Shown piece after piece: positions 8,826 to 49,540 of a stretch of DNA of 64,000 nucleotides. The DNA is from a bacterium. GTDB lineage: Bacteria; Bacillota_I; Bacilli_A; Acholeplasmatales; JAEDCM01. The notes under the pieces are model-generated. The model was not told the DNA's origin. It was given only the letters and a program-made list of their open reading frames with translations, and did not search any database. The stretch covers positions 1,280 to 65,279 of the forward strand of contig JAILKD010000065.1 of assembly GCA_024694145.1 (NCBI GenBank), read 5' to 3'. How positions within the stretch are numbered: the stretch's first letter is position 1; each line of letters opens with the position of its first letter. Made by a program: the position numbers and the translations under genes.

Positions 8826-9221
8826 TTATCTCTTAGAGAATTGAGGTGCTCTACGTGCCTTCTTAAGACCATATTTCTTTCTTTCTTTAGCACGAGGGTC
8901 TCTTGTAACCATACCAGCTGGTTTTAAAGTCTTACGTAAATCTGGATCTACTTCCATTAATGCTCTAGTAATTCCTAAACGGATTGCTCCAGCTTGTCCT
9001 GAAATACCACCGCCACATACATTAACTTCTACATCGAATTTTTCTTTTGATTCAGTTAATTCAAGTGGTTGAAGTACATCTAGTCTAATAGCTGCTGATG
9101 GAATGTAATCTTCAAATGTTCTACCGTTAATTGTAATTTTTCCCTTACCTGTAGTTAAACGTACACGAGCAATTGAGCTCTTTCTACGTCCAGTTCCTAA
9201 ATATTGAGTCTTCTTTGCCAT
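8826..9221 (-). CDS. rpsI: 30S ribosomal protein S9
   Basis: 131 aa ending in ...[12 protein letters not shown], with the [15 protein letters not shown] motif. Confidence 0.97.
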
Positions 9222-9235
9222 AATTTCTCTTCCTC

Positions 9236-9670
9236 CTACTTAATAACCTTTAATTCCTTTGGTTGTTGTGCCTTTTGAGCATAATCAGGACCTGCATAAA
9301 CAAATAAATGTCTAAAGCATTGATCACCAAGTTTTGTGTGAGGAAGCATACCTTTAATAGCTTCTTCAACCATTCTTGTAGGGAATTTCTTCATTTGATC
9401 TTTAGCAACAGTTGCTGTTAAGCCTCCGTTGTAATCAGAATGACGGTAGTAGATTTTTTGATCCCATTTCTTACCAGTTAATTTAATTTTTTCTGCATTA
9501 ATTATGATTACGTAATCTCCACAATCGCAGTTTGGAGTAAAGATTGGTTTATTTTTACCTCTTAAAACAGCGGCTACTTGAGTTGCTAGACGACCTAAAG
9601 TCATATCTGTAGCATCTACGATAAACCATTCTCTTTGTACAGTTTGGGCACTTGCCATATAAGTTTTCAT
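9236..9670 (-). CDS. rplM: 50S ribosomal protein L13
   Basis: 144 aa, with ...REWFIVDA...[13 protein letters not shown]. Immediately upstream of rpsI. Confidence 0.97.
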
Positions 9671-9768
9671 AGTTAGTTTTCCTCCTTAAATTTATTTTAA
9701 GGGCTTTTGTGGGTTTAAAAATGTACCATAAATAATAATATTATATTATTAACATAAAGTCAAGGTTT

Positions 9769-10266
9769 TTACATAAGTTTTATTTCTTTTAGATAATCTA
9801 AAAGACCATTTAGCCCTAAAATTATATCACTACTTGTCTTTTTGAAGTCTCCTGTATACCAAGGGTCACTTATAGATTTATTAGTTAATCCTGCAAAATC
9901 TAGTAGTAGTTTTATTTTATTATCTTTGTCACTACCTACAATCCTTAAAGTGTTACTTATATTATAACTATCAGCGCATATTAATAAATCAAAGTTATCA
10001 TAATCACTTCTTTTTAGAAGTTCTGCTCTTTTATTATCAAAGTTAGTATATTCTGTTTTACCTATACCTAAATTTAATAATTCTTTTCTAGCAGGAGGAT
10101 ATATTTTATTACCTATACCATTATAAATTTCTTCACTACTTGTAGCCCTAGATTCTATTATGAAATTATCTTTAATATTTAATTTTTCAACCATATCTTT
10201 AAATATAAATTCAGTAATAGGACTACGGCAAATATTACCATGGCATATAAATAATATTTTTATCAT
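9769..10266 (-). CDS. Low-molecular-weight protein-tyrosine phosphatase
   Basis: CHGNICRSP (CX5R-S/T P-loop) at the N-terminus and a DPWY motif near the C-terminus. 165 aa. Confidence 0.85.
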   Translation of the reverse strand: MIKILFICHGNICRSPITEFIFKDMVEKLNIKDNFIIESRATSSEEIYNGIGNKIYPPARKELLNLGIGKTEYTNFDNKRAELLKRSDYDNFDLLICADSYNISNTLRIVGSDKDNKIKLLLDFAGLTNKSISDPWYTGDFKKTSSDIILGLNGLLDYLKEIKLM

Positions 10267-10293
10267 AATAACTCCTTAAATACGAAAATTAAA

Positions 10294-10311
10294 CCTAGTA
10301 CAAGTACTAGG
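10294..10311 (-). terminator. Hairpin terminator after the giant helicase gene
   Basis: Palindrome CCTAGTAC-AA-GTACTAGG, followed on the minus strand by TTTAATTTTCG. It separates the helicase gene from the phosphatase gene. Confidence 0.5.
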
Positions 10312-10322
10312 CTTAATGTTTA

Positions 10323-13300
10323 TTATTTTTTTAATATTCCTAAATCAACACCAAAGTTATAAACATAATCCATTCTATCCATCACTTTTTGATTTAGAGT
10401 TTGACTCTTTGGCTTTAATGCTTGAAGTGTAAGCTTATATAAGTCTTCTCTACTTACTCCTCCTTGCATCTTAGCAACTTGGACCATACAAGCTAGTATT
10501 TCTTCTTTACAAATATCATAAATATCTAAGCCTGAATTTTCTCTAAATATATTAAGTTCTTGTTTAACCTTAAGAGGCCAGTAGAATTTTTGACTTTGGT
10601 CTAAGCTTACGTTAGGATAAGGTTTAATACAATATTCTAAACGTTGATTTGCTTTTGTTGAGAATACCTTAATATTTGAATAATCTTTAACTCTTTGTTT
10701 TATTGTTTCAAATGAAACTGGTCCTTCAACATCAATTATCTTTTGAATCATATTAGGTAATCCTTGAGAGAATCCTGTATCATTATTATAACTAATTCTA
10801 CCAAGTCCACTAGACTTTTTATATTGAACAGATTCTAATGTAATACCTTCTACTTTTTCATCCTTTTGAATTGTTGGTTTTATTTCAAATGTTTCTTTAA
10901 TGTATGGATCATCAATAGCATCAATTATTTTATCAATTGTTGCTTTTCTATCTTTGAAGTATTCTATTGCATATACATTAACAAGCTTCCATTTTAATCC
11001 ATTTAATACTGAAGATTGGACATATAATTTATCTCTAACTGTTACATCTTTATCAATACCTAGTGTATCAATTAGTATACCTAATACATAAGATTTCTTA
11101 TCTTCTGATTTAATAGCTACATCTACTTTATAAATACTTGTTCCTACATTAACAGCACAGTCATAACCACGCTCTTCTAAATCATTTTTAATGTAGTAGC
11201 AAATAGATTTTTCAAGTGTAGAATTAATATCTTTTCTATTAAAACTTGATTCTTCAGCAAATCTTAAGAATTCTTTTAATAGTTTAGGACCTTTACTCTT
11301 AGATTTAAGCTCACTAGCAAAGTCGCTATATTTAATTGTTGATATAACAATCATTTGTTCCTTACTACGGCTAACGGCAACATTTAGACGTTTTTGACCA
11401 TTTTCACGAGCAAGTGGTCCATTGATTACTGGAGTACCTAAAGCACTCTTTCTAAAGCCAATAGAAATAACTATAATATCACGTTCATCACCTTGAACAT
11501 TTTCTAGTGATTTAACAAACCAAGGTTCACCAGTTTTACTACTTGCATTATCAACAGCTTCTCTAAGCTTACTATCTTTAGCAAGTAAATCAATAATTGC
11601 TTCTTCAACTTCTTCTTGTTGCTTGATGTTAAATACAATTATACCGATAGACTTATTCATAGTCTTTTCATTAGTATAAACATCTTTGAATGTATTAATG
11701 ATTGCATCTAATTCTTCTTTTGTAATAGATGAATCTTTCTTTTCATTCTTTAAATCAACATATTTAAAATCAATCATTGAACTAGCTGCATTAGGGCTAG
11801 GGAATGTATATAAGTTAGAGTTATAGAAATAAATATTAGAGAATTGAATTAATGATTCATGTTTACTTCTATAGTGGAATGATAATCTATGACGAGGAAG
11901 TTCAATTGCAATGCATTCATCAAGTAAACTAGATGCATCTTCAAATTGAATATCTTCGCCTTCAAGCTCCAATCCTGCACTAAAATATGCAGATGGTGGC
12001 ATTTGTTCAGGGTCACCTGCAACAATTAAACTCTTACCACGAGCAATAGGTCCTACTGCTTCATGTGTTGGAATCTGACTAGCTTCATCAAATATAACTA
12101 AATCAAATTTAGATGCTTCTTTACCGTTAACATCATCAACTGCCAAGTATTGTGCAGCTGAAAGTGGTGACATTAAGAAACAAGGAAAATATGATCTAAT
12201 AATTTCATCATAATTAAGTAATGTATCTCTAATTGTTACACCACGTCCATTGCTTGAAATAGATTTTTTAAGTCTACCAATAGGGCTACTTGATGCATAA
12301 TTAATAGAATTATGATTTAAATCTTTTGTTAGTTTAGCACTAACATGTTCAATAATCAAATTAGTATATTCATTAATTAATGCTTTATATTTCTTTATTT
12401 CTCCTTCAAATTGACTTGGGTTGAAATAATTAATATTTGCATCTTTAAAATATAGCTTAATAAAGCCATTTGATATAGATAATAAGAATACATCAATTAA
12501 ATCTACATATGAGAATTTATTAGCTTTTAAGTTATCTAATAATTCAGTTAAGCCTAGTTCATTTAATTTTAATCCAAGCTTATTAATTTGAGCTATATTT
12601 AATAAATCATTAAAGTTATCCATAATTGATGCATATTTAAGTAGGGATTCAAATACATCTAAATCAAGGGTATCTTGTTGGATTATTTTATAATCTACAT
12701 CATAAGTACTATTAAGTTTTTCTTCTAATACTTTATAGTTTTTAAATTTATCATTGACCATTGTAAACATCATCTTTGTTGATGGTGTTTTAATATTAGC
12801 CAAATCTAAGAAATATTTAGATGCGTTTATTTGGTTAGTATATGAACCAAGTTTCTTTAATAAATTCATAAGTAAATATGTGTTTTCATACTTTTCCTTA
12901 ATCTTAATAGCATCTTTATATCTACTTACATAATCAATATTACATAGCTTATTGATTTCAGTTGAATTTTCTTTTAAGTAGCTAATGTATTTATTGTAAG
13001 TATCAATAACTTTATAATAACTAATTAATTCTTTCTTATTAGGTTTAAAGTCATTTTGCTTAATTGTATTGAATAGTTTTAAATACTTCTTCTTTACACC
13101 CATCTTTTTAAAGAAACCTTTAGTAGTTTCTAAATCAGCAATAGCTCTATTAGCATCTATATCTATTATTTTGTTAAAATCAATAATCTTTAAGTTCTTT
13201 GATTCAACTTCAAGCAAATCTAGAGTTTTATTAAATACTTCTCTATTTATCTCGTCATTAGCTACATTCATAAAATCAGTAGCTGTATCAATAAATAATG

Positions 13301-16124
13301 GCTTATTTAAAGCTAAATCCATTAAATCCATAAAGTAGCTAATGCTTAAATTAGATTTAACAATATCTAAATTAGTTTCTTTAATTAAATTAGAAATTTC
13401 TTTAATTAAATCTTGATATACCTTTAAGAATTCTTTAAATTCATTAACTATTTTTTCTTTATTAGAATAGTTAATATCACTAACCTTTAGTAGTTTTAGT
13501 GGATTATCGTCATAATCATTAACACCTTCAACACTTGCCATATATTCATTAAGTAGATTTTCTATTTCTTCTAATTTGTCTTTTGATAAAGATTCTAAGA
13601 ATTCTTTATTAAAATCTACTTTTGTATTTAAGGCATTGTAATATTCTATATTAACGATAGATTCATATAAGCTAAGTGCATATTTCTTTTCATGCATCTT
13701 ATTAATAACTTCTTGTAGTATTTTCTTCTTTTCTTCTAATTCCTTACACTTCTTTTCAAAGTCAGTTGGATCTACTGTAGGTCCTAGTTCCATAGAATCT
13801 CTTAATTTAGAAAAGAATTCTCCCTTATTAGCTTTATTAGAGTGTAATTCTAGACAGAATCTGCCTAAAGATATTTTGTTTAAACGATTAGCAACTACAT
13901 CTAGTGCAGCCTTCTTTTCAGCAACAAATAGTACTGTTTTACCATGATAGAATGCATTAACTATCATATTAACAATAGTTTGGCTCTTACCTGTACCTGG
14001 AGGCCCATCAAGTATAAATGACTTGCCTTTACCACAGTCAAGTATAGCTTTTAATTGTGTAGAATCATAAGGTAGTGGTGCAGCAAAATCTGTATATACT
14101 TCTTCACTATTAATATCATCATAAACTGACTCACTATCATTTAGACAGTTCTTATTAGCTAAAATACTTTCTATAACTTTATTCTTCTTTAATTCTTCTT
14201 TTCTCTTTCTAACATCCATCCACATAATATAGTGAGAGAATGTTAAATTAGCAATATAAAAATCAGATTCATGTAATTGAATAATATTACCCCAGTGTTC
14301 CTTGAATGTATGAACAATATTTAAATATCCATCACTTGCTTTAGATGCATATAATTCAGCAAAGCTAGTATCTGGTTCATCTAATATATAATATTCAAAG
14401 AATGATTGATTAAGCATTAAATCATCTAAATCATAACTCATAGTGTAAAGAGGACCTGATTTATCTTTTGTAATAGTAATTGGTAAAACCATAAATGGTG
14501 CATAACCGGTAGTTTTAGCCTTTTTTCTAGTGTAAGCTAGCTTACCACAGCATAAATAAAGTGTTGGCGAACCTGTTTCATCCATTGCTTGATTTGATTT
14601 TTTAATAAGTTGCTTTAATACCTTATCAAAACCAACAGCAATAGCCTTATCACTATCAAAATCTTCAGCAAACTTTATTGATGAAACACTTACGTTACCA
14701 TCAATATATAGTTTTTCTAAATCACCTTTAGCTTCAACAACCATAAATTTAATAGAATCTTTCTTTTCTAATAAATCAAATATTTGGCTTTGACTAATTA
14801 GTTGAAGCATACTTGATGGTTTTAATCTTAAATTGACAAGTGGATTTGATTCATTTAAGTCTAATAACTTTTTCTCCCAGAAAGAGAATCTATCTTTTTC
14901 TTCTGCTTTTAAAACATCAACATATGTTCTACTTTTTATTGAATCTAGTTTTGTTGTTCTAACATTATTTTCTTTAATTAAACTTTCAATATCTAAATCT
15001 TTTGAATTAGTTGTAATAGGTGAATAAATATAATCAAAGTTATGACATCTATTAATATCAATTGCTTCAAAAGATCCAAAGTAATTCTTTAGATGAGTAT
15101 TAGCTGCATCAATTGCATCTTGTAGTGACGCATTTTTTGTTGTATCAATAAAAGTTGATTCAATTAATAGTATATCTTTATTTCCTTCTGTTGCTCTTGA
15201 ATAAATTGAATTAGCTTCAAATGAAATACCTGAATCTAATTTAGATTTTTCATTTAAGAATACTCCGACAAATGCATGTCCTTCTATTAAAACTAAAATA
15301 GAATGGAATCCTAATTCTTCAAAGCATGAACATAAAAGAATTGCTGAATCTAAGCAAGTTGCTTTTTTATCTGTTAATACTTCATGTGGAAGTCTTATGC
15401 GTTGTGGATGATGAACTTCTTCATTGTTTTCATCAATTGCATAAGAACAACCTGCAGGTGGGTTTTGATAAACTATTCCACTTTCATGAAGTGATAAATA
15501 AACAGCCTGTATTTCATTAAGCATTGCATTATAATTAATTCCATTTTGATATGCCTTAATAACCTTGTTTTTTGCCTTAGCTATAGCATTTCTAGTTATT
15601 TTCTTTACATTATCATCACTAGGAGTAACGTATTTTGCATATAGTCTTGCATCTTTAAAAATAGCTGTTGTAGGTTGTGAAATAGGTAGTATTGTAAAGA
15701 TATAGTGATTCTTATAAATTACTTTTTCATTTTCATCTAATAATTCTATATCGAAGCTTGATGGTATTGGTTCGTTAACAGTATTAAAATAATCTCTATC
15801 AACTATTAAATCAGGAACATCAACACCAATCTCATAGTTTTCTTGTATCTCTTCACTAATTTTTATATCAGGCATTTTAAATGCTTGGCAATTAAAATTA
15901 AATCTAATTGTTAAATTCTTATATGAATTTTTAGTATAGTTTATGATAAATAATTCATTGATAAAAGAAAAAGTTCTATCATATTCTTGATTTAACTTTA
16001 TAGATTTTGCATGCGCAAAAATATCTGCTAGATATTCTGAATAAGTAAATTCAGTATCGATACTAGCACATACTCTAATTTCGTTTTCAAAATTACGGTC
16101 AATCTTAATTAATTTTTCTTCCAT
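10323..16124 (-). CDS. Giant (1933 aa) DUF4011 / Upf1-like SF1 helicase (AAA_11/AAA_12) with a Vsr/REase-like domain, a DUF3320 C-terminus and a transglutaminase-like N-terminal region
   Basis: Walker A LDGPPGTGKSQT (aa 705-716), VIFDEASQI, GDPEQMPP, HYRSKHESLIQFSN, GDERDIIVISIG, LNVAVSRSKEQ. The REase-like segment is GYDCAVNVGTSIYKVDVAI...LGILID. The N-terminal segment ATCLDSAILLCSCFEELGFHSILVLIEGHAFVGVF follows the Cys...His pattern of transglutaminase-like cysteine proteases. Confidence 0.8.
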   Translation of the reverse strand: MEEKLIKIDRNFENEIRVCASIDTEFTYSEYLADIFAHAKSIKLNQEYDRTFSFINELFIINYTKNSYKNLTIRFNFNCQAFKMPDIKISEEIQENYEIGVDVPDLIVDRDYFNTVNEPIPSSFDIELLDENEKVIYKNHYIFTILPISQPTTAIFKDARLYAKYVTPSDDNVKKITRNAIAKAKNKVIKAYQNGINYNAMLNEIQAVYLSLHESGIVYQNPPAGCSYAIDENNEEVHHPQRIRLPHEVLTDKKATCLDSAILLCSCFEELGFHSILVLIEGHAFVGVFLNEKSKLDSGISFEANSIYSRATEGNKDILLIESTFIDTTKNASLQDAIDAANTHLKNYFGSFEAIDINRCHNFDYIYSPITTNSKDLDIESLIKENNVRTTKLDSIKSRTYVDVLKAEEKDRFSFWEKKLLDLNESNPLVNLRLKPSSMLQLISQSQIFDLLEKKDSIKFMVVEAKGDLEKLYIDGNVSVSSIKFAEDFDSDKAIAVGFDKVLKQLIKKSNQAMDETGSPTLYLCCGKLAYTRKKAKTTGYAPFMVLPITITKDKSGPLYTMSYDLDDLMLNQSFFEYYILDEPDTSFAELYASKASDGYLNIVHTFKEHWGNIIQLHESDFYIANLTFSHYIMWMDVRKRKEELKKNKVIESILANKNCLNDSESVYDDINSEEVYTDFAAPLPYDSTQLKAILDCGKGKSFILDGPPGTGKSQTIVNMIVNAFYHGKTVLFVAEKKAALDVVANRLNKISLGRFCLELHSNKANKGEFFSKLRDSMELGPTVDPTDFEKKCKELEEKKKILQEVINKMHEKKYALSLYESIVNIEYYNALNTKVDFNKEFLESLSKDKLEEIENLLNEYMASVEGVNDYDDNPLKLLKVSDINYSNKEKIVNEFKEFLKVYQDLIKEISNLIKETNLDIVKSNLSISYFMDLMDLALNKPLFIDTATDFMNVANDEINREVFNKTLDLLEVESKNLKIIDFNKIIDIDANRAIADLETTKGFFKKMGVKKKYLKLFNTIKQNDFKPNKKELISYYKVIDTYNKYISYLKENSTEINKLCNIDYVSRYKDAIKIKEKYENTYLLMNLLKKLGSYTNQINASKYFLDLANIKTPSTKMMFTMVNDKFKNYKVLEEKLNSTYDVDYKIIQQDTLDLDVFESLLKYASIMDNFNDLLNIAQINKLGLKLNELGLTELLDNLKANKFSYVDLIDVFLLSISNGFIKLYFKDANINYFNPSQFEGEIKKYKALINEYTNLIIEHVSAKLTKDLNHNSINYASSSPIGRLKKSISSNGRGVTIRDTLLNYDEIIRSYFPCFLMSPLSAAQYLAVDDVNGKEASKFDLVIFDEASQIPTHEAVGPIARGKSLIVAGDPEQMPPSAYFSAGLELEGEDIQFEDASSLLDECIAIELPRHRLSFHYRSKHESLIQFSNIYFYNSNLYTFPSPNAASSMIDFKYVDLKNEKKDSSITKEELDAIINTFKDVYTNEKTMNKSIGIIVFNIKQQEEVEEAIIDLLAKDSKLREAVDNASSKTGEPWFVKSLENVQGDERDIIVISIGFRKSALGTPVINGPLARENGQKRLNVAVSRSKEQMIVISTIKYSDFASELKSKSKGPKLLKEFLRFAEESSFNRKDINSTLEKSICYYIKNDLEERGYDCAVNVGTSIYKVDVAIKSEDKKSYVLGILIDTLGIDKDVTVRDKLYVQSSVLNGLKWKLVNVYAIEYFKDRKATIDKIIDAIDDPYIKETFEIKPTIQKDEKVEGITLESVQYKKSSGLGRISYNNDTGFSQGLPNMIQKIIDVEGPVSFETIKQRVKDYSNIKVFSTKANQRLEYCIKPYPNVSLDQSQKFYWPLKVKQELNIFRENSGLDIYDICKEEILACMVQVAKMQGGVSREDLYKLTLQALKPKSQTLNQKVMDRMDYVYNFGVDLGILKK

Positions 16125-16246
16125 AATACCCTCCTATAAATATCAAACTTATAATAAAATTATAACACGAATTATATTATAATAAAATATAATTCAAAAT
16201 CATTTTACAAACAAAATAAAATGTTATAAGATATAAATAGATACTT

Positions 16247-16323
16247 TGGGGTATCGCCAAGCGGCTTAAGGCATCTGGCTCTGACCCAGACATTCGGGAG
16301 TTCGAATCTCTCTACCCCAGCCA
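16247..16323 (+). tRNA. tRNA-Gln (anticodon CUG)
   Basis: Hand-folded. Acceptor TGGGGTA/TACCCCA (the U1-A72 pair typical of bacterial tRNA-Gln). Anticodon stem TCTGG/CCAGA with loop CTCTGAC. T-arm GGGAG-TTCGAAT-CTCTC. Discriminator G and an encoded CCA. Confidence 0.85.
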
Positions 16324-16365
16324 TTAATAAAATTTGGCTTAATAAAGCCTTATATAGGAGGTCAT

Positions 16366-17907
16366 ATGAAAAAATTGTTAAGTGGAGTTTTAACACTTGG
16401 ATTATGTTTTACATTAATCGGATGTGGTAAGAAAAACTCAAAATCAACTACAAGAGAAAAGACAACTTATGATATTGATACAGACAATCCTAATTATGAA
16501 AGTAATTATAGTCCTATACTATCAGATACTTTACCTAGAATAGATATCGATGTTGCTGATGATTCTTTATCTCATGAAGAAAAAATGAAATTTGTAACAG
16601 AACCTAATAGGGATAACCCACCAGCAGATTATACAGAATGTAATGTAACTGTTAGTGAAGGATCTGATATTTCTATAGATGGTAAAAAAGCTGGAGTTAA
16701 AGTTAGAGGTAACTGGACAACTTATTATGATAAAAAGCCACTTAGAATTAAGTTTGATAAGAAACAATCAATGCTTGGCTTAAATAATGGTGAAAAATAC
16801 AAAAGCTGGGTTTTACTTGCTGCATATAAAGATTGGTCAATTCTAAGAGATGCTTCTGCTTTCTATCTAGCAAAATTAATGGGAGCTTATTATGCATCTG
16901 ACTTTAGATTAGTTAATGTATATATTAATGGTGAATACTGGGGCGTTTATTTATTAGTTGAACAACAACAAACTGGTTCAACTAGAGTAAATATTACTGA
17001 ACCAGAAAAACTAGATGATGGTACTTACTATACTGGCACTGATATTGGATATTTTTTAGAATATGATGGATATTATACTGAGGAAGATCCTAATCAAACA
17101 TTTACTGTTGAATACAAAGGTCTACCTAACTATGATAAAACAAAAGCTTTCCCTAAGAATAAATTCCAAAAAGGATTTACTATTAAAAGTGATATCTATT
17201 CTGAAAATCAAAAATTATTTATAAAAAATTACATGCAAAATGTATTTGATATATCATATAATGCAATAATTAAAAAAGAATTTTATGAATTTGATTCAAC
17301 ATATTCTACTATTACTAAAAATGATAGTCTAAACTCTTATACAGCAATAAGCAAAGTTATTGATGTTGATTCACTTGTAAATGCTTATATTTTAGCTGAA
17401 CTAACATGCGATGTTGATATAGCATGGTCAAGTATGTTTATGGATGTGGATTTTGGAGAAAATGGTAGTAAAAAATTAGTATTTGAAGCACCATGGGATT
17501 ATGATTCATCTTTAGGAAACACTAGGGGTTGCCCAGATGCAAAAGGAATATTTGCAGCTGATGTAGAAATAAATGCAATGAATGAAGAATCAGCAAATCC
17601 TTGGTACATGTTATTCTATCAATGTGATTGGTTTAGGAATTTAGTTAAAGATAAACTAAATGGAATGAAAGATAAAAAAGTATTTGAAAAAGTAGTGAGC
17701 TTTATTACTGACGCATCAACTAAATATGAAGAAGATTTTAAAAACAATTATACTAAATGGAATAACTGTGGTCATCCTGAAACAATCAATTACGAAACAA
17801 ATGAGAATTCAGCAAAATGTAAGACTGAAAAAGAAGCTGCAAACTGGTTAAAAGAATGGTTTACAATGCGTGTAGAAAATGTAATTAAAATATTTAATGA
17901 ACAATAA
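16366..17907 (+). CDS. CotH-family (spore-coat protein H-like kinase fold) lipoprotein
   Basis: Lipobox TLIGCGKK. The segment VKVRGNWTTYYDKKPLRIKFDKKQ...YKSWVLLAAYKDWSILRD...VNVYINGEYWGVYLLVEQ is characteristic of CotH. Confidence 0.75.
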   Translation: MKKLLSGVLTLGLCFTLIGCGKKNSKSTTREKTTYDIDTDNPNYESNYSPILSDTLPRIDIDVADDSLSHEEKMKFVTEPNRDNPPADYTECNVTVSEGSDISIDGKKAGVKVRGNWTTYYDKKPLRIKFDKKQSMLGLNNGEKYKSWVLLAAYKDWSILRDASAFYLAKLMGAYYASDFRLVNVYINGEYWGVYLLVEQQQTGSTRVNITEPEKLDDGTYYTGTDIGYFLEYDGYYTEEDPNQTFTVEYKGLPNYDKTKAFPKNKFQKGFTIKSDIYSENQKLFIKNYMQNVFDISYNAIIKKEFYEFDSTYSTITKNDSLNSYTAISKVIDVDSLVNAYILAELTCDVDIAWSSMFMDVDFGENGSKKLVFEAPWDYDSSLGNTRGCPDAKGIFAADVEINAMNEESANPWYMLFYQCDWFRNLVKDKLNGMKDKKVFEKVVSFITDASTKYEEDFKNNYTKWNNCGHPETINYETNENSAKCKTEKEAANWLKEWFTMRVENVIKIFNEQ

Positions 17908-32891: not shown

Positions 32892-33959
32892 CTATTCAGT
32901 ATATTCTTTAACGAAAGCACTAGTTAAGTGTTTTTTAACAAACTTACTATTTTTTGCTAAATCTACTGCTTTAGCTAAGCTTGTAGCTTTGCCTAAACCA
33001 GTTTGATTATCAAAAATAGAATAAATTAATAAAGCATATACTAGATAAGGATTATATCCATCACTTAATCTTTCCACATAGATTTCGTTTAGATATGAAT
33101 CAAATGTAATGTCTTTTTCCGAATCGTAGTCATTATATAAGTTGTTTGTATTATTTAAGAATAAATATATTTCATCGTAATGTTTTTTGATATTTTTAAT
33201 AGCTAGTTTAAATGTTGCTGGATCAGCTGAAATAACTATTCTATGCTTGCTTACTGGCTTACCATTAATAGGCATATGAGAAAAATCTGCATACAAACCA
33301 TTCTTAACAGCAATAGTCTTTACTGCTGATATAAATGTTAGAGAATCTTCAGCAGCAACTAGTGGACTATCCTTTTGCATAAGTATTTTATTTTGTCCAG
33401 GTCCTAATGCATGAAATGATCCACATGTAGGAATATGCATCTCTGATAATGTTAGGCATATTTCTCTTCTTATATTCGCTCCTTTATCAAGTGGTGCAAC
33501 ATCCATATAGCTTGCATTATCATATGGAGTTTTTGTCACATTACCATCTTCATCAAGTTTAAATAAATAGAATTCAAATTCTGTTCTTAAGAATATTGAA
33601 GCATTCTTTTTATCTAAATAATCAACTGCCTTTTTTAAAATAGTTCTAGCTCCAAAATCAAAATCTGTTCCATCTTGATTTTTCACATCACAATACATTT
33701 TTACAACTCTTCCTGTTGAAGGTCTCCAAGGTAATACTGAAATAGTGTTTGGATCAGGATAAAGCACTACCTTCCCTTCTAATGAATCTAGGATACTTGA
33801 TGCATATATAGTGCATCCACTATTAAATACACTTTCTAGTTCACTAGGCATAATCGCAATATTTTTTTGCTTACCATATGCATCTAGAAAAAGTAATCTA
33901 ATAAATTTGACATCCTCTTCCTTTACATACTCTAAAATGTTTTCTTTTGAATAACTCAT
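32892..33959 (-). CDS. Truncated glutamine-synthetase-like protein, probably non-catalytic
   Basis: GS beta-grasp N-terminus (VKFIRLLFLDAYGKQKNIAI) and the FEFYLF motif. The metal-binding motif HHEVAPGQHE is replaced by FHALGPGQNK (33387-33416), and GSGMH by VSKHR. Only 355 aa. Confidence 0.7.
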   Translation of the reverse strand: MSYSKENILEYVKEEDVKFIRLLFLDAYGKQKNIAIMPSELESVFNSGCTIYASSILDSLEGKVVLYPDPNTISVLPWRPSTGRVVKMYCDVKNQDGTDFDFGARTILKKAVDYLDKKNASIFLRTEFEFYLFKLDEDGNVTKTPYDNASYMDVAPLDKGANIRREICLTLSEMHIPTCGSFHALGPGQNKILMQKDSPLVAAEDSLTFISAVKTIAVKNGLYADFSHMPINGKPVSKHRIVISADPATFKLAIKNIKKHYDEIYLFLNNTNNLYNDYDSEKDITFDSYLNEIYVERLSDGYNPYLVYALLIYSIFDNQTGLGKATSLAKAVDLAKNSKFVKKHLTSAFVKEYTE

Positions 33960-33983: not shown

Positions 33984-34038
33984 AAAAATAAAAAAGGGCG
34001 CTAAAGAAACTATTAATAATTTCTTCTTGAACGCCCTT
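33984..34038 (-). terminator. Leader terminator/attenuator upstream of the GS-like/ANTAR operon
   Basis: Minus strand reads AAGGGCG-(31 nt with inner AAGAAA/TTTCTT stem)-CGCCCTT followed by TTTTTTATTTTTATTTTTT. It lies between the promoter and the SD (GAGGTG). An upstream GAAC-AAGGGC-GTTC hairpin competes for the GGGCG arm. Confidence 0.6.
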
Positions 34039-34048
34039 GTTCGCACTT

Positions 34049-34078
34049 ATTATAACATTATATTTTTTTTCGTGTCAA
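34049..34078 (-). promoter_or_regulatory. Sigma-A type promoter of the GS-like/ANTAR/dapFL/pyrG/gltBD operon
   Basis: Minus strand TTGACA (34078-34073), 18-nt spacer, TATAAT (34054-34049). Confidence 0.55.
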
Positions 34079-34220: not shown

Positions 34221-34249
34221 TTGACATATAAAAAAATAAGTTATACAAT
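34221..34249 (+). promoter_or_regulatory. Sigma-A type promoter of the glnN operon
   Basis: TTGACA (34221-34226), 17-nt spacer, TACAAT (34244-34249). Confidence 0.55.
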
Positions 34250-34252
34250 GAA

Positions 34253-34310
34253 GCCATAGAAAGGCAATGGCGCCTAACTTGAGAGATCAAGAAGTGCCTG
34301 CCTTTTTTTG
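34253..34310 (+). promoter_or_regulatory. glnN leader with mutually exclusive antiterminator and terminator hairpins
   Basis: GCCAT-AGAAAGGCA-ATGGC (34253-34271) shares GGC with the terminator GGCGC..CTTGA-GAGA-TCAAG..GTGCC (34269-34298), which is followed by TGCCTTTTTTTG. Confidence 0.5.
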
Positions 34311-34336: not shown

Positions 34337-36421
34337 ATGAAACAGCTAGAATCGTATTTTGGATCTTTAGTCTTTGATGATAAAGTAATGAAATCAAGAC
34401 TATCATCTGATGTTTATAAATCACTAAAAAGGACAATTAGTGATGGAAAGGAATTAGACCTAAGTGTTGCTAATAGCGTCGCTCAAGCTATGAAAGACTG
34501 GGCCATTGAACAAGGTGCTACACATTACACTCACTGGTTCCAACCAATGACTGGTGTAACAGCTGAAAAGCATGATAGCTTCATCTCACCTGATGCAGAT
34601 GGTAGAGTTATTATGGAATTCAAGGGTAAAGAACTTGTTAAAGGTGAACCAGATGCATCAAGCTTCCCATCAGGTGGCTTAAGAGCAACTTGTGAAGCTA
34701 GAGGATACACTGCTTGGGATCCAACAAGCTATGCTTTTATTAAAGATAAATGCTTATGCATCCCTACAGCATTCTGTTCTTATGGTGGACAAGCTCTAGA
34801 TAAGAAAACTCCACTTTTAAGAAGTATGCAAGCTATTAACAAACAGGCTCTAAGAGTTTTAAAACTATTTGGTAATGAAAATGTTACTTCTGTTAAAACT
34901 ACAGTAGGTCCTGAACAAGAGTATTTCTTAGTTGATAAAGAAATGTATGACAAGAGAAAGGATTTAATCTATACAGGTAGAACACTATTTGGTGCAAGTG
35001 CTCCAAAGGGCCAAGAGCTTGAAGATCATTATTTTGGTGTTATTAAGCCTAGAGTACAAGCTTTCATGAATGATTTAAATGAAGAGCTTTGGAAGCTTGG
35101 TATTTTAGCTAAAACAGAACATAATGAAGTAGCTCCCGCACAACATGAGCTTGCTCCAATCTTCGCTACAACAAATATTGCAGCAGACCATAACCAAATT
35201 ACAATGGAAATTATGCAAAAGGTTGCTAAAAAACATGGTCTAGTTTGTTTACTACATGAAAAACCATTTAAGGGAGTAAATGGTAGTGGTAAACATAACA
35301 ACTGGAGTATTTCAACAAATACTGGTGTTAACCTACTTGAACCAGGGGATACACCAATTGAAAATGCCCAATTCTTGCTATTTTTAACAGCTGTTATCAA
35401 AGCTGTAGATGAATATCAAGACTTACTTAGAATTAGTGTCGCAAGTGCTGGTAACGACTTCCGTCTTGGTGCAAACGAAGCACCTCCAGCAATCATCTCA
35501 ATCTTCGTTGGTGATGAATTACAAGCTGTACTTGATGCTATTGAAACTGGTAAACCACTTACAAGCAAAAAGGATGGTTCACTAAAGATTGGTGCTGATG
35601 TATTACCTAAGTTACCAAAAGATTCAACAGATAGAAACAGAACAAGTCCATTCGCATTTACAGGAAATAAATTTGAATTTAGAGCACTTGGTTCTAGTGA
35701 ATCAATTTCATGTGCAAACATTATGTTAAATACAGCAGTTGCTGAAGAATTAAAAGAGTTTGCTGATATCTTAGAAAAATCAAAGAACTTCAAAGAAGAT
35801 TTACATGAATTAGTTAAGAAAACAATCGTTGAACATAAACGTATTATATTCAATGGTAATGGTTATGATGATTCATGGGTTAAAGAAGCTACTAAACGTG
35901 GACTATTAAACTTAAAGTCTACTCCAGAAGCTCTTCCATATTACTTACATGATAAGAATAAACAATTATTCATTAGCCATGCAGTATATAGTGAAGATGA
36001 AATTCTTGCTAGATATGAAATAGCTCAAGAACATTACCAAAAGATTGTTAATATTGAAGCTTTAACTGAATTAGATATGTTAAACAAGGATCTTCTTCCA
36101 GCTATAAGCAAATATACTAAATATTTAGCTGAGGCAATCACTGTAAAGAAAGGATTAAATGCCGAAATCCTTTATGAAAATAGTCAGTTAATAGATATAA
36201 CAAAAGGCTTAACTGAGGCATATTCTCTAAAACTTGAATTAGAAAAAGTCTTAAGTAATAAGCCTACTACTTCTGTTGAAGAAATCTCAATTTACTATAA
36301 AGATAAAGTATTACCATTAATGGATGAAATAAGAACTATTATTGATGGAATCGAGGCTAAAGTAGATAAATCATTCTGGCCTTATCCTTCTTATGGAGAT
36401 CTATTATTTGGTGTAAGATAG
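34337..36421 (+). CDS. glnN: Glutamine synthetase type III
   Basis: 694 aa. The N-terminus [15 protein letters not shown]...THYTHWFQP and the core [16 protein letters not shown] are typical of GSIII. Confidence 0.9.
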
Positions 36422-47191: not shown

Positions 47192-47515
47192 TTGAGCAAA
47201 AAAAAGAATTATAAATTACAAAAAAATAAATTCTATATGCGTAAAGACCAAAATGGAATTCATCCTTCTTTGGTTTATGGCTATATTGAAAATGGTGATG
47301 AAGCAAAATATAAAGCCGTTATTTTTACAAAGAAAAAAGATCACAATAGTTGGCGTTTGAAAAAAAGTATAAACAAAAAAACAAGCCCTATTTCTTGTGT
47401 TAGAAAAATTCCAGAAATCAGAGAATACGGGTATTTTATTGACGAAAAGTTAAAGGGTTATAGAGTAAAACTAGCCGATAGAAAGCTAGTGAAAAAAGTC
47501 AAAAAGAAAAAATAA
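47192..47515 (+). CDS. Orphan lysine-rich small basic protein (107 aa), function unknown
   Basis: TTG start with a strong SD (AAAGGAGAG 8 nt upstream). About 30% Lys/Arg and a KKVKKKK tail. I recognise no family. It converges on the small-RNA array. Confidence 0.55.
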   Translation: MSKKKNYKLQKNKFYMRKDQNGIHPSLVYGYIENGDEAKYKAVIFTKKKDHNSWRLKKSINKKTSPISCVRKIPEIREYGYFIDEKLKGYRVKLADRKLVKKVKKKK

Positions 47516-47566
47516 AAAAGATAAGGCACGGAGTCAAGCTTAATTGACCACTTGTACCTTATCTCT
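47507..47566 (-). ncRNA. Candidate small RNA, unit f (stem-closed hairpin RNA, homologous to unit a)
   Basis: 8-bp closing stem 47519-47526/47557-47564 (AGATAAGG/CCTTATCT). The interior contains AGTGGTCAATTAAGCTTGAC with an inner GTCAA/TTGAC hairpin. It is followed on the minus strand by TTTTTTATTTTTT. The predicted TSS is 6-8 nt downstream of the -10. Confidence 0.45.
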
Positions 47567-47572
47567 ACATAA

Positions 47573-47601
47573 ATTATAGCAATTATTATGGTTTTTGTCA
47601 A
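47573..47601 (-). promoter_or_regulatory. Consensus sigma-A promoter for unit f
   Basis: Minus strand TTGACA (47601-47596), 17-nt spacer, TGC-TATAAT (47578-47573, extended -10). Confidence 0.6.
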
Positions 47602-47665
47602 TAAAAAAGCAATAAGTAAATCGGTCGTATAGACACAGCTAGTATCCTAGTCAAGTACTTATTGC
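47600..47665 (-). ncRNA. Candidate small RNA, unit e (three-way-junction-like, homologous to unit d2)
   Basis: Perfect 10-bp closing stem 47609-47618/47656-47665 (GCAATAAGTA/TACTTATTGC). The interior has two small hairpins (CTAG-GATA-CTAG and GTC-TATAC-GAC). A U6 tract follows on the minus strand. Confidence 0.4.
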
Positions 47666-47672
47666 ATAAATA

Positions 47673-47700
47673 TAATAACATAAAAAAAAGAAAGTAAATC
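47673..47700 (-). promoter_or_regulatory. Weaker extended -10 promoter candidate for unit e
   Basis: Minus strand TGT-TATTAT (47681-47673) ends 7 nt before the unit e stem. The only -35-like sequence is poor (ATTTAC). Confidence 0.3.
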
Positions 47701-47826
47701 GGCCTAATTAAAAGCCACCTTGAAATTTCTTATTTCAAGTCAAGTACTTTCTATAAATAAGTGATTAATCCAATGACTATTGCCATAGCAACCAGGGGTC
47801 ATTAGCCTCAGTAATATTAATCACTA
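47680..47826 (-). ncRNA. Candidate small RNA, unit d (two stem-closed domains, d1 and d2)
   Basis: d1 has a perfect 10-bp stem 47760-47769/47816-47825 (AGTGATTAAT/ATTAATCACT) with inner AATGAC/GTCATT and TTGC/GCAA stems. d2 has an 8-bp stem 47689-47696/47745-47752 with an inner 8-bp hairpin CTTGAAAT/ATTTCAAG and a GGC/GCC hairpin. A U8 tract follows. Confidence 0.45.
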
Positions 47827-47831
47827 CTGTA

Positions 47832-47859
47832 ATTATAGCATAATTAGTATAATTGTAAA
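47832..47859 (-). promoter_or_regulatory. Near-consensus sigma-A promoter for unit d
   Basis: Minus strand TTTACA (47859-47854), 16-nt spacer, TGC-TATAAT (47837-47832). Confidence 0.55.
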
Positions 47860-47972
47860 TAAAAAAAGAACAGCGAGCTCCTTCGAAAGTGCTTATTAGC
47901 CGTTCAATTAATGTAGGTGCTGTTCACAGTAATTGCAATCAATTATTGTGTTCGAAACAGGCCACCTACCAA
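47858..47972 (-). ncRNA. Candidate small RNA, unit c (about 110 nt, with alternative pairings)
   Basis: Long 5' hairpin: CAATTGGTAGGTG...CACCTACATTAATTG enclosing CACAGTAATTG/CAATTATTGTG at 47925-47950. The 3' closing stem GAACAGC/GCTGTTC (47868-47874/47919-47925) competes with it and is followed by U7. Confidence 0.45.
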
Positions 47973-47977
47973 TTGAT

Positions 47978-48006
47978 ATTATATTTATTTATAAAACAAT
48001 TGTCAA
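47978..48006 (-). promoter_or_regulatory. Consensus sigma-A promoter for unit c
   Basis: Minus strand TTGACA (48006-48001), 17-nt spacer, TATAAT (47983-47978). Confidence 0.6.
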
Positions 48007-48070
48007 TAAAAAAATAGATGCTGTTCCCAGTAAACAAGTTATTGGGCGTTGAAACAGTCCATCTATTTCT
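48005..48070 (-). ncRNA. Candidate small RNA, unit b (long imperfect hairpin)
   Basis: 9-bp closing stem 48012-48020/48060-48068 (AAATAGATG/CATCTATTT) with nested CTGTT/AACAG and CCCA/TGGG stems. A U7 tract follows. Confidence 0.45.
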
Positions 48071-48076
48071 AAATAT

Positions 48077-48104
48077 ATTTTATCATATTAAAAATTTAAG
48101 TCAA
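48077..48104 (-). promoter_or_regulatory. Near-consensus sigma-A promoter for unit b
   Basis: Minus strand TTGACT (48104-48099), 16-nt spacer, TGA-TAAAAT (48082-48077, extended -10). Confidence 0.55.
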
Positions 48105-48161
48105 TAAAAAAAGATAAGCTGCGGGGTCAAGCTTAATTGACCACTATGCAGCCTATCTTTA
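48103..48161 (-). ncRNA. Candidate small RNA, unit a (stem-closed hairpin RNA, homologous to unit f)
   Basis: 13-position closing stem 48110-48122/48148-48160 with one A.C mismatch. The interior reads ATAGTGGTCAATTAAGCTTGACCCC, with an inner GGTCAA/TTGACC hairpin. A U7 tract follows. Confidence 0.45.
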
Positions 48162-48166
48162 TAAGC

Positions 48167-48195
48167 ATTATATCAATTATGTTCAATCATGTCAA
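48167..48195 (-). promoter_or_regulatory. Consensus sigma-A promoter for unit a
   Basis: Minus strand TTGACA (48195-48190), 17-nt spacer, TATAAT (48172-48167). It lies immediately downstream of the purB terminator. Confidence 0.6.
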
Positions 48196-48213
48196 TAACA
48201 TCTTACACATATT

Positions 48214-48237
48214 AAAAAGGGCCTTAAATGGCCCTTT
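48214..48237 (-). terminator. Intrinsic terminator of purB
   Basis: Minus strand AAAGGGCC-ATTTAA-GGCCCTTT followed by TTAAT. It starts 5 nt after the purB stop. Confidence 0.8.
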
Positions 48238-48241
48238 AAAA

Positions 48242-49540
48242 CTATTTACCTATTTTACATCTATCATAGATGAAATCAACATTCTTAAAGTAATATTCAA
48301 GAGTAAAGCAATTGTCTAATTCTTCTTTTGATAGAATTGACATAACTTTTTCATTTTGACTTAATAAAGTCTTATAGTCTTTTCTTTCATTATATGCTGT
48401 CATAGCAATAGGTTGAACTGTATCATATGCTTCTTCTCTAACTAAACCTTTTTCAATTAAAGCATTCATAACTCTTTGTGCAAATATTACACCATTAGTC
48501 TTATAGATATTTTCAATCATAGTTTCAGGATATACTACAACATTTTCTAGAATACCCTTAAATCTATTTAACATATAATCTAATAATTCAGTTGCATCTG
48601 GTAAAATAATACGTTCAGTTGCAGAATGAGAGATATCTCTTTCATGCCATAGGGCAACATTTTCATAGAATGTTAACATATATCCTCTCATTACTCTAGC
48701 ACATCCACAAATATTTTCTGATGAAATAGGATTTCTCTTATGAGGCATTGCACTACTTCCTTTTTGCCCTTTAGTAAATGCTTCTTCTAGCTCATGAACT
48801 TCTGTTCTTTGAAGATTTCTAATTTCAAAAGCCATTTGTTCTAAGCTTGCTGCTATACAAGCTAAAGTTGCCATATAATATGCATGTCTATCTCTTTGTA
48901 GTACTTGTGTACTTACATTAGCACTATTAATTCCTAGATGTTCACATACATAATCTTGAATGAATGGTGGAATATTAGCAAAGTTACCAACAGCTCCACT
49001 CATCTTACCACATTCAACATTTAATCTTGCTGCATTAAATCTTTCTAGGTTTCTCTTCATTTCTTCATGCCATAAAACCCATTTTAAACCAAATGAAGTA
49101 ATATCTGCATGAATACCATGAGTTCTACCAATACATGGTGTAGTTTTAAATCTTAAAGCTTGTTTTTCTAATACTTTCATAAATTCAATAATATCTTCAT
49201 ATAAAATATCATTAGCTTGTTTAATTAAGTATCCATTTGCAGTATCAACTACATCTGTACTAGTTAAACCATAGTGTACCCATTTTTTTTCTTCACCTAA
49301 AGATTCACTAACGCATCTAGTGAAAGCAACAACATCATGCTTAGTTTGAAGTTCTATTTCACTAATTCTATCGATATCAAATTTAGCATTATCTTCAATT
49401 TTATCTACATCTTCTTTTGGAATAACACCAAGTTCACTCCATGCTCTATCGGATAAGATTTCAACTTTTAAATAAGCATTGAACTTATTTTCTTCAGTCC
49501 AAACATTACGCATTTTTTCTCTTGAATATCTATTAATCAT
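48242..49540 (-). CDS. purB: Adenylosuccinate lyase
   Basis: 432 aa, [10 protein letters not shown]...LTSTDVVDT...[11 protein letters not shown], the fumarate-lyase signature. Confidence 0.96.

Follow-up and report, generated by a model that had tools for sequence, protein, structure and literature searches.

The locus described here lies in a 64-kb stretch of bacterial DNA (64,000 nucleotides, hereafter the window), where six head-to-tail transcription units of small RNA (sRNA) type fill ~690 bp at 47507-48196 on the minus strand. The array faces a plus-strand open reading frame (ORF) of 107 residues, ORF107, such that the last unit, f, runs convergently onto the ORF107 stop codon, and the association of this protein family with a facing hairpin-RNA gene is, from sequence comparison, the most solid new result of the analysis. 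The host genome is Anaeroplasma-like and comes from the rumen, and the PurB protein encoded next to the array is 81-88% identical to those of Anaeroplasma/Anaeroplasmataceae metagenome-assembled genomes (MAGs). The features of the locus are listed below with coordinates that are positions of the 64-kb window; the array itself is read on the minus strand from 48196 to 47507.

47192-47515, plus strand: ORF107, 107 aa, basic and lysine-rich, with a TTG start and the ribosome-binding site AAAGGAG.
47507-47601, minus strand: unit f, with the -35 element at 47601-47596, the -10 element at 47578-47573 and an RNA from ~47566, in which the closing stem AGAUAAGGUAC/GUGCCUUAUCU surrounds the invariant inner hairpin GGUCAA-UUAAGC-UUGAC; the U-tract at 47519-47514 runs into the ORF107 stop codon (47513-47515).
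47603-47680, minus strand: unit e, with an extended -10 element TGTTATTAT at 47680-47672, RNA ~47665-47609, closing stem GCAAUAAGUA/UACUUAUUGC and U-tract 47608-47603; paralog of hairpin d2.
47681-47859, minus strand: unit d, with the -35 element TTTACA at 47859-47854, the -10 element at 47837-47832, hairpin d1 at 47824-47761 (closing stem GUGAUUAAU/AUUAAUCAC), hairpin d2 at ~47752-47690 and U-tract 47689-47682.
47861-48006, minus strand: unit c, with a perfect promoter (-35 at 48006-48001, -10 at 47983-47978), hairpin c1 at ~47969-47913, which is a paralog of b, a separate terminator hairpin at ~47905-47868 and U-tract 47867-47861.
48008-48104, minus strand: unit b, with the -35 element TTGACT at 48104-48099, the -10 element TAAAAT at 48082-48077, RNA ~48070-48008, which forms a three-tier hairpin AAAUAGAUG..CUGUU..CCCA / UGGG..AACAG..CAUCUAUUU, and U-tract 48014-48008.
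48106-48195, minus strand: unit a, with a perfect promoter (-35 at 48195-48190, -10 at 48172-48167) and RNA ~48160-48106; a second copy of the f family in which the invariant interior is kept and the closing stem covaries.
48213-48240, minus strand: intrinsic terminator of purB, GGGCC-AUUUAA-GGCCC followed by a U-run, which borders the array on the purB side and lies outside it.

A preliminary description of the window had proposed an array of promoter, hairpin and U-tract units at this position, and the minus-strand sequence does display that grammar, with six predicted short structured RNAs that each have a promoter and a U-tract of their own. Three of the promoters are perfect TTGACA-17-TATAAT sequences (48195-48167, 48006-47978 and 47601-47573) and have no further match in the 64 kb; the expectation is 0.04 and none of 100 shuffles reaches three, which bears out the earlier view that they exceed chance. 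Two others are weaker, namely TTTACA-16-TATAAT (47859-47832) and TTGACT-16-TAAAAT (48104-48077), and that of unit e consists of the extended -10 element with no usable -35, a correction to the preliminary description. Each -10 element is separated by 6-8 nt from the start of a hairpin, behind which come 6-8 T residues in a row, and in the single-hairpin units the first and last bases of the hairpin are paired with each other. The hairpins fold with z-scores of -3.2 to -6.2 relative to dinucleotide shuffles, of which at most 1 in 200 folds equally well. There are eight hairpins in the six units, because c and d carry two in series, which again corrects the preliminary description; the first of each (c1 and d1) has no U-tract of its own.

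Each promoter-RNA-terminator cassette measures only ~95-180 bp. After every U-tract comes an A and then the next -35 element, so that the T-run doubles as an A/T-rich upstream element of the following promoter. A terminator scan finds five terminators where 0.5 are expected, an excess that understates the case since the scan was limited to simple hairpins. When the complete grammar (promoter, closed hairpin and T-run) is scanned for, four units are flagged inside the 0.7-kb array, where c and e are missed by the scanner, and the rest of the 64 kb yields two compact units and two long chance matches, while ~140 kb of related Anaeroplasmataceae loci yield two units, one of which is a fluoride riboswitch. 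The array units are very likely to be genuine sRNA genes. It is plausible that their RNAs are abundant and protected from exonucleases, although the closing stem also serves simply as the terminator stem.

The array contains no credible ORF, in agreement with the preliminary description, and both a decayed protein gene and a set of small-peptide genes were rejected on this ground. No tRNA, tmRNA or tRNA-like RNA was found within it. Likewise, CRISPR and ToxI-like repeats, as had been anticipated, and solitary repeats of the RNA anti-CRISPR kind can be set aside, given that there are no direct repeats of 28-37 nt (CRISPR repeat libraries were not compared), that Tandem Repeats Finder reports no repeat of unit size and that the conserved parts are inverted. 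Rfam was searched with the window region at the gathering score and at E<=10, and with the related contigs L002 and L098 (described below) at E<=1, and returned nothing above threshold; the best matches of these units reach 20-28 bits against thresholds of 45-79 and represent sub-threshold chance matches to rli28, MicF and ctRNA_pT181, such that the earlier failure to recognise an RNA family holds. A phage or plasmid sequence was rejected because blastn in distant mode gave one 64-nt chance match and nothing more. Scans of IMG/VR with three unit motifs produced zero or only chance matches, with no exact match to the loop motif of unit a, and this motif had 0 matches in a set of one genome per species (GTDB), which places the source lineage outside the GTDB representatives.

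The interiors of the units had been regarded as mostly different from one another. Instead, the units form three paralogous pairs, where the motif GTGGTCAATTAAGCTTGAC is common to a and f, TGGMCTGTTTC...ACTGKGAACAGCA to b and c, and AAGTACTTGAC...CCGATTTACTT to d2 and e, with 0 occurrences expected by chance for the last. The contrast drawn previously with the paralogous LhrC and csRNA clusters was accordingly too sharp. For the a/f family, seven distinct copies from the window and the metagenome loci L002-L008 can be aligned. Twenty base pairs are formed in every copy (100% paired), four of them with compensatory double changes, and only 0-4 of 500 shuffles reach the observed values, while controls in which the alignment was slid fall to 28-53% paired. 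Only five central base pairs of the closing stem vary; the stem base (AAAGAUA / UAUCUUU) is constant, the apical hairpin comprises 20 invariant nucleotides and the interior is 84-96% identical. Within the same set of loci, identity between independent copies is only 24-53% in the promoter spacers, and it is 54-66% at third codon positions of the neighbouring ORF, which argues that the apical hairpin is under selection at the level of sequence and not only of structure. The b/c family, with three sequences, is 93% paired and contains four compensatory pairs.

ORF107 had been treated as an orphan bystander of the array. Rather, it is the conserved partner of unit f, since a facing promoter, stem-closed RNA and U-tract are located at the stop codon of the ORF107-family gene in nine of nine independent lineages, with protein identities of 27-86% and in unrelated contexts; these nine are every lineage sampled from a family of 292 clusters. 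The closest homologs, P0002 and P0003, are 86% and 65% identical to ORF107 over the aligned region and are encoded on contigs L004-L008, which are small and derive from an element that codes for a large P-loop membrane protein, PcfK, PcfJ and a Rep_trans initiator or relaxase. On these contigs, a single unit of a/f type with a perfect promoter follows the ORF on the opposite strand, in the layout of unit f. A non-coding segment of L004 (2690-2935) upstream of two small ORFs and the Rep_trans gene contains the GC-rich hairpins GGGCCGTATGGCCC and CACGTGCATGTGCACGT and is probably the replication or transfer origin of this element.

Six further lineages encode proteins that are ~27-43% identical to ORF107. 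In each, the gene stands alone in a different, mostly housekeeping neighbourhood, namely near prs/tgt (L098), next to uvrA (L099-101), next to thrS (L102-105) and next to glmU-like genes (L106), in addition to the loci L107 and L108. The opposite strand of these distant loci carries a -35 element, a 17-nt spacer, a -10 element, an interval of 6-7 nt (10 in L108), a stem-closed hairpin and a U-run complementary to the terminal lysine codons of the ORF. The stop codon falls within the closing stem in six of the nine lineages (for example, GTGATTC, AAGTAAGT and AAGTAGTCA) and just before the stem in the a/f lineages (window, L004 and L007) and in L107. The RNAs have an architecture in common, in which a closing stem of 8-14 bp leads, through an internal loop with 3-6 nt at the 5' side and 0-2 nt opposite (as many as 5 in unit 2 of L098), to an inner hairpin of 3-7 bp. 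L098 has four such facing units in tandem. On this basis, unit f and ORF107 are likely to constitute a conserved functional pair.

Two further observations concern these facing genes. The protein P0026 (L098, 6001-6357), as well as P0022 and P0024, bears 6-17 extra residues (such as VHRPVGLWVNH and WHPRVA) because its reading frame continues into the facing hairpin, which shows that a stop codon within the closing stem is labile in evolution. In L106, the palindrome CTAGTATATACTAG occurs twice (634-681), across the promoter of the RNA gene that faces P0019; the two copies look like an operator and suggest that the RNA promoter is regulated in that lineage.

ORF107 is identical to the MAG hypothetical protein K6E87_05230, has no hydrophobic segment and is predicted to form a beta-barrel with a C-terminal helix. 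Profile searches recover its family as 12 clusters at 50% identity and as the 292 clusters in a larger collection, where most members are exactly 107 aa long and the family is unannotated. An alignment of three sequences gave an unusable AlphaFold2 model with a predicted local distance difference test (pLDDT) score of 50, whereas the model built from a 14-sequence alignment has a pLDDT of 91.9 and a predicted template modelling score of 0.84 and exhibits six or seven strands and the C-terminal helix. The nine best Foldseek matches in the PDB are all MazF toxins, aligned over the full length with template modelling (TM) scores of 0.52-0.59, probabilities of 0.96-1.0 and E-values of 0.06-0.2; CcdB is found further down, and none of the 50 listed matches is described as ToxN, AbiQ or CptN. 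The best matches in BFVD include an 'Endoribonuclease' and a PemK/MazF toxin. The family has a conserved T/S after a beta-strand, FT[S/K], and hhalign pairs the family motif GGHPSLIY with GGxRPxLVI of MazF, albeit without significance; H24 and T46 would occupy the positions of MazF-like catalytic residues. Homology between ORF107 and MazF at the sequence level was rejected as not significant (Pfam and hhalign). The predicted fold of ORF107 is thus MazF/PemK-like, with borderline statistics, in that the SH3-like barrel plus C-terminal helix in ~100-120 aa that characterises the MazF/CcdB fold is present in the model. Among the called genes, no short co-directional upstream gene that could encode a protein antitoxin of MazE/PemI type is present in the window, L004/L005, L098, L099, L102, L106 or L107.

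The array had also been described as a feature of the purA-purB intergenic region. Eleven Anaeroplasmataceae relatives have guaA or other genes directly after purB, with purA not adjacent and with no array, and a conserved purA-purB feature was therefore discarded; the array and ORF107 together are a lineage-specific insertion, which we take to be of mobile-element origin. The PurB sequence (48242-49540) also shows 77-80% identity to its counterparts in more than 60 MAGs with Bacteroidales, Rikenellaceae or Muribaculaceae labels (L019-L088), nearly as high as the 79-88% to Anaeroplasmataceae, which suggests either transfer of purB between phyla or systematic mis-binning. In Anaeroplasma bactoclasticum (L016, 4889-4962, and likewise L018), the sequence after purB holds a perfect promoter and then a fluoride riboswitch (RF01734, 43.5 bits) that precedes a membrane protein gene, an ordinary arrangement; the L016 riboswitch served as the positive control for the Rfam search. 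The two compact units found elsewhere in the window are 5' leaders located directly upstream of two glutamine-synthetase genes, at 33995-34078 (minus strand) and 34221-34304 (plus strand), where two divergent consensus promoters (TTGACA-18-TATAAT and TTGACA-17-TACAAT) each have a terminator hairpin behind them. The genes behind them encode a glutamine-synthetase-like protein (32892-33959, minus strand) and a type III glutamine synthetase (34337-36421, plus strand). These leaders match no Rfam family and resemble attenuators that possibly respond to nitrogen.

The loop motif of unit a is present in two metagenome contigs, L002 and L003; a third match, L001, was rejected as a chance match in unrelated high-GC DNA. 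L002 has two more arrays of the same grammar (631-1030 and 2640-3540), which comprise a-type, b-type and d1-like units, including a close copy of unit b at 2902-2965, and at least seven other types; several L002 units are two-hairpin sRNAs and not stem-closed. The arrays flank an AbiEi/AbiEii pair (1037-2472) and adjoin a tRNA-Arg gene with a duplicated 3' fragment. This tRNA-Arg(CCT) (3891-3965, minus strand) has a direct repeat of ~70 nt, covering its 3' part and downstream flank, at ~3541-3612, which is the scar of an element integrated at the tRNA, with the second array, AbiEi/AbiEii and a gene for a WYL-like protein just beyond. Two other features of L002 are a perfect promoter with a predicted 184-nt RNA divergent from abiEi (2645-2857; no Rfam match and a weak fold, z = -1.7) and unit j (858-920), in which the loops of both hairpins contain the same 11-nt sequence UGCAACAAAGC and look like a protein- or RNA-binding motif.

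Between L003 and L002, cassette content differs while the flanking WYL-like gene is nearly identical, such that the gain or loss of units as cassettes, which had been raised as a question beforehand, is observed between near-identical strains. A 98% copy of the WYL-like gene in the MAG of the window itself (P0006 = K6E87_04865) suggests that the source genome has a locus of L002/L003 type, possibly with more than one array. The contig L097 ends 75 nt past the WYL-like gene, suggesting that assemblies break at these arrays. A functional link between array and WYL-like gene was rejected, as distant homologs in L093 and L096 have no arrays downstream. Below its WYL-like gene, which is 61% identical, L093 has four GCATACCC(C)TA repeats, two GTAGACACTA repeats and an IS3-type transposase fragment (9130-9330), followed by a defence island with GmrSD, a Cap4-type nuclease and an AlwI restriction-modification system (9618-17020), which is likewise free of sRNA arrays.

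We suggest that the locus comprises a toxin/RNA-antitoxin module together with an array of orphan RNAs, a reading to which we assign a probability of roughly 55% and within which we infer transcription, toxicity, neutralisation and the role of the extra units. It is the simplest reading of a predicted MazF-fold protein that is encoded without a protein antitoxin, that is always faced by a strongly promoted hairpin-RNA gene and that occurs both on a mobile element and at non-syntenic chromosomal sites. The hairpin RNA, produced strongly and constitutively, would keep the ORF107 protein in check, with unit f as the cognate partner RNA and unit a as a second copy. The neutralisation could proceed by two routes. 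By a type I-like route, the RNA would pair with the 3' end or the read-through part of the ORF107 mRNA and cover the stop codon; since there is no plus-strand terminator after ORF107, pairing may extend over the whole read-through region, and the unit on L004 is antisense to the intercistronic region between ORF92 and pcfK. By a type III-like route, the RNA would bind the ORF107 protein directly. We slightly favour the latter because of the invariant apical hairpin, the conserved asymmetric loop and the absence of a second complementary mRNA site: none for the a/f RNA was found in the ORF107 mRNA, and a kissing-loop target of the apical hairpin in this mRNA was rejected, as none is conserved.

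The remaining units b/c, d1 and d2/e would be RNA genes of partner type for which the window has no corresponding toxin gene. The closing stem of d1 (AGUGAUUAAU...AUUAAUCACU) resembles the AGUGAUUCRC-type RNAs beside the L098, L099 and L102 proteins, and d2/e (AAGUACUU...UUUACUU) resemble the AAGUAAGU and AAGUAGUCA types beside P0019 and P0021, in both cases by eye. In addition, units a, b, d1, d2 and e allow a reading of '...K K (R/Q/K) stop' on their antisense strands, similar to the C-terminus of the ORF107 family. The extra units may be spares that increase the amount of RNA, as in L098, and so could buffer the resident protein, or else relics of modules that have lost the toxin gene, or orphan antitoxins directed against related toxins on incoming mobile elements; their intact consensus promoters argue that they are retained by selection.

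The locus works most like an RNA-antitoxin system, yet it is without the defining features of types III, I and II. The type III toxin ToxN is structurally related to Kid/MazF, and the type III antitoxin is a tandem direct-repeat array located upstream of the toxin on the same strand, under one promoter and with a terminator between the two (PMC3401426). Shared with type III systems (ToxIN, CptIN, TenpIN and AbiQ) are the Kid/MazF-related fold of the toxin (here a predicted fold and a putative toxin), a small structured RNA that here would likewise be made in excess and hold the toxin in check, tandem RNA units and the association with mobile elements and defence islands. In contrast, the RNAs described here are downstream and convergent, each with its own promoter and terminator, and are hairpins of different sequence families rather than pseudoknots processed by the toxin from 34-36-nt repeats, and ORF107 is 107 aa long compared with ~170 aa for ToxN and has no match among ToxN or AbiQ models.

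Convergent antitoxin RNAs that overlap at the 3' end, with cleavage of the toxin-antitoxin duplexes by RNase III, are documented in Firmicutes (PMC6563280). The geometry of these type I systems (txpA/RatA and bsrG/SR4 of B. subtilis, and CD2517.1/RCd8 of C. difficile, among others), with convergence at the 3' end, a strong antisense promoter and a prophage or mobile location, fits here, with each facing unit running towards its gene and the U-tract and closing stem lying over the stop codon in all nine lineages, and degradation of an RNA duplex by RNase III would be plausible as a mechanism. However, type I toxins are usually hydrophobic membrane peptides of <60 aa, whereas ORF107 is soluble, highly basic, beta-rich and 107 aa long; the overlap is only the U-tract plus the stop codon unless the mRNA reads through, and neither an invariant apical hairpin nor arrays of non-identical RNAs are type I features. 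ORF107 is similar to the type II systems MazEF, PemIK and Kis-Kid in predicted fold and size, with GGHPSLIY at the place of GGxRPxLVI in MazF, but is distinct in having no upstream MazE/PemI gene, no significant sequence similarity and a non-coding RNA gene as partner.

Several observations weigh against a toxin/RNA-antitoxin module. The MazF assignment comes from a predicted structure with Foldseek E-values of 0.01-0.2, other SH3-like barrels (chromo, BAH and WYL) appear lower in the Foldseek list, hhalign against MazF, Kid and EndoA gives a probability of 0.4-0.6%, and searches of Pfam, NCBIfam, PADLOC, PHROGs and PDB sequences returned no match for the family. ORF107 could be an RNA-binding or regulatory protein and not a toxin, and the many family members that are solitary in housekeeping neighbourhoods also fit a non-toxic function. 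The promoters and terminators are no more than matches to consensus sequences, and the similarity between d1, d2/e and b/c and the partner RNAs elsewhere in the family was judged by eye only, on short stems in AT-rich DNA. The window has no second member of the protein family, and a-type units occur away from any ORF107-like gene in L002 and L003, so that the RNAs can function, or at least persist, alone. Finally, the last unit of an L002 array abuts abiEii, and convergence onto the end of a gene may in part reflect use as a bidirectional terminator.

The most probable of the alternatives is an ordinary island of trans-acting sRNAs (LhrC-, csRNA- or Qrr-like) that base-pair with host or mobile-element mRNAs, in which the adjacency to ORF107 would reflect only a shared mobile-element ancestry and the hairpin would be a convergent terminator. 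Independent promoters and terminators, paralogous pairs and covarying structure all speak for such an island, as do a-type and other units in the L002/L003 arrays with no ORF107-like gene and the two-hairpin units of L002. Listeria LhrC1-4, the streptococcal csRNAs and Pseudomonas PrrF1/2 are also head-to-tail sRNA genes with their own promoters and intrinsic terminators; however, each belongs to one family with exposed seeds, known regulons and a core chromosomal location, whereas here at least three to four families are mixed within a mobile insertion, the conserved bases are mostly helical and one family is tied to a protein gene. The pairing of gene and RNA in nine of nine lineages, in unrelated contexts and down to 27% identity, is hard to explain without a functional link, and with most conserved bases buried in helices neither an exposed seed nor a conserved target site was found. 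We consider an ordinary sRNA island unlikely.

It is less probable still that the RNAs are countertranscripts for copy control, incompatibility or immunity of a rolling-circle or conjugative element, with the chromosomal arrays as captured copies that interfere with incoming elements. The single a/f unit within the Rep_trans/PcfJ/PcfK element, antisense to the ORF92-pcfK region, is compatible with such a role, and the units share with the countertranscript RNAs (ctRNAs) of pT181/pMV158 and with FinP a 50-90-nt hairpin with U-tail, a strong constitutive promoter, carriage on a Rep_trans element and an antisense orientation to an operon transcript. One distant unit even matches ctRNA_pT181 weakly, but at 28 bits against a gathering score of 56. 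Moreover, ~2.3 kb separate the unit from the rep gene, neither a rep leader nor a traJ-like one lies opposite it, and chromosomal members are present without a replicon, there being no called replication or transfer gene in the flanks of the distant loci (3-6 kb where the contig allows, 1.3 kb in L108). The RNA tracks the ORF107-family gene in the nine sampled lineages rather than rep or transfer genes.

A purely cis role, in which convergent promoters and terminators act as a transcriptional insulator or collision wall at the mobile-element junction, preventing read-through between ORF107/purA and purB, and the RNAs are by-products, would suit the position of the array, where plus-strand carB, purA and ORF107 meet minus-strand purB and purC, as well as the lack of a plus-strand terminator after ORF107 and the use of each U-tract as an upstream element of the next promoter. 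We nevertheless regard it as very improbable, as a single terminator would suffice and an insulator has no need for 20 invariant apical nucleotides, compensatory changes or RNA families common to several loci. DNA hairpin elements (REP/BIME-, MITE- or integron attC-like, or single-stranded origins or nick sites of Rep_trans) with incidental promoter hexamers would fit the inverted repeats with conserved ends and variable interiors, the cassette-like behaviour and the association with a rolling-circle-type element, but are scarcely credible given the promoters in fixed register 6-8 nt ahead of every hairpin, the U-run on the same strand only, the G-U pairs of the stems, which can form only in RNA of this strand, the lack of dispersed multicopy spread in the window and the absence of an adjacent integrase, HUH or RAYT gene.

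Both the RNA family and the pairing of gene and RNA are novel in their own right, and we found no description in the open-access literature of a MazF-fold toxin with a convergent sRNA partner or of arrays of such RNAs. As a tentative proposal, which we hold to be possible but rather doubtful, the locus may represent an undescribed toxin-antitoxin-like class in uncultured Bacilli/Mollicutes, in which a minimal MazF-fold protein that lacks a protein antitoxin is controlled by a convergent, independently transcribed hairpin RNA over its stop codon, and a chromosomal bank of orphan RNAs of several specificities acts against mobile elements with related toxins (anti-addiction or immunity). If this is true, it would be a new RNA-antitoxin architecture, where a self-contained hairpin sRNA gene takes the place of a protein or a processed repeat array as the partner of a MazF-fold toxin, and the first case of chromosomal orphan RNA-antitoxin arrays, which bears on how genomes defuse the addiction modules of mobile elements. 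The locus also offers very compact natural promoter-RNA-terminator cassettes and a functional context for an unannotated family of ~290 protein clusters in gut and rumen Bacilli. Should ORF107 prove not to be a toxin, the invariant pairing of gene and RNA still defines a new protein-associated RNA motif.

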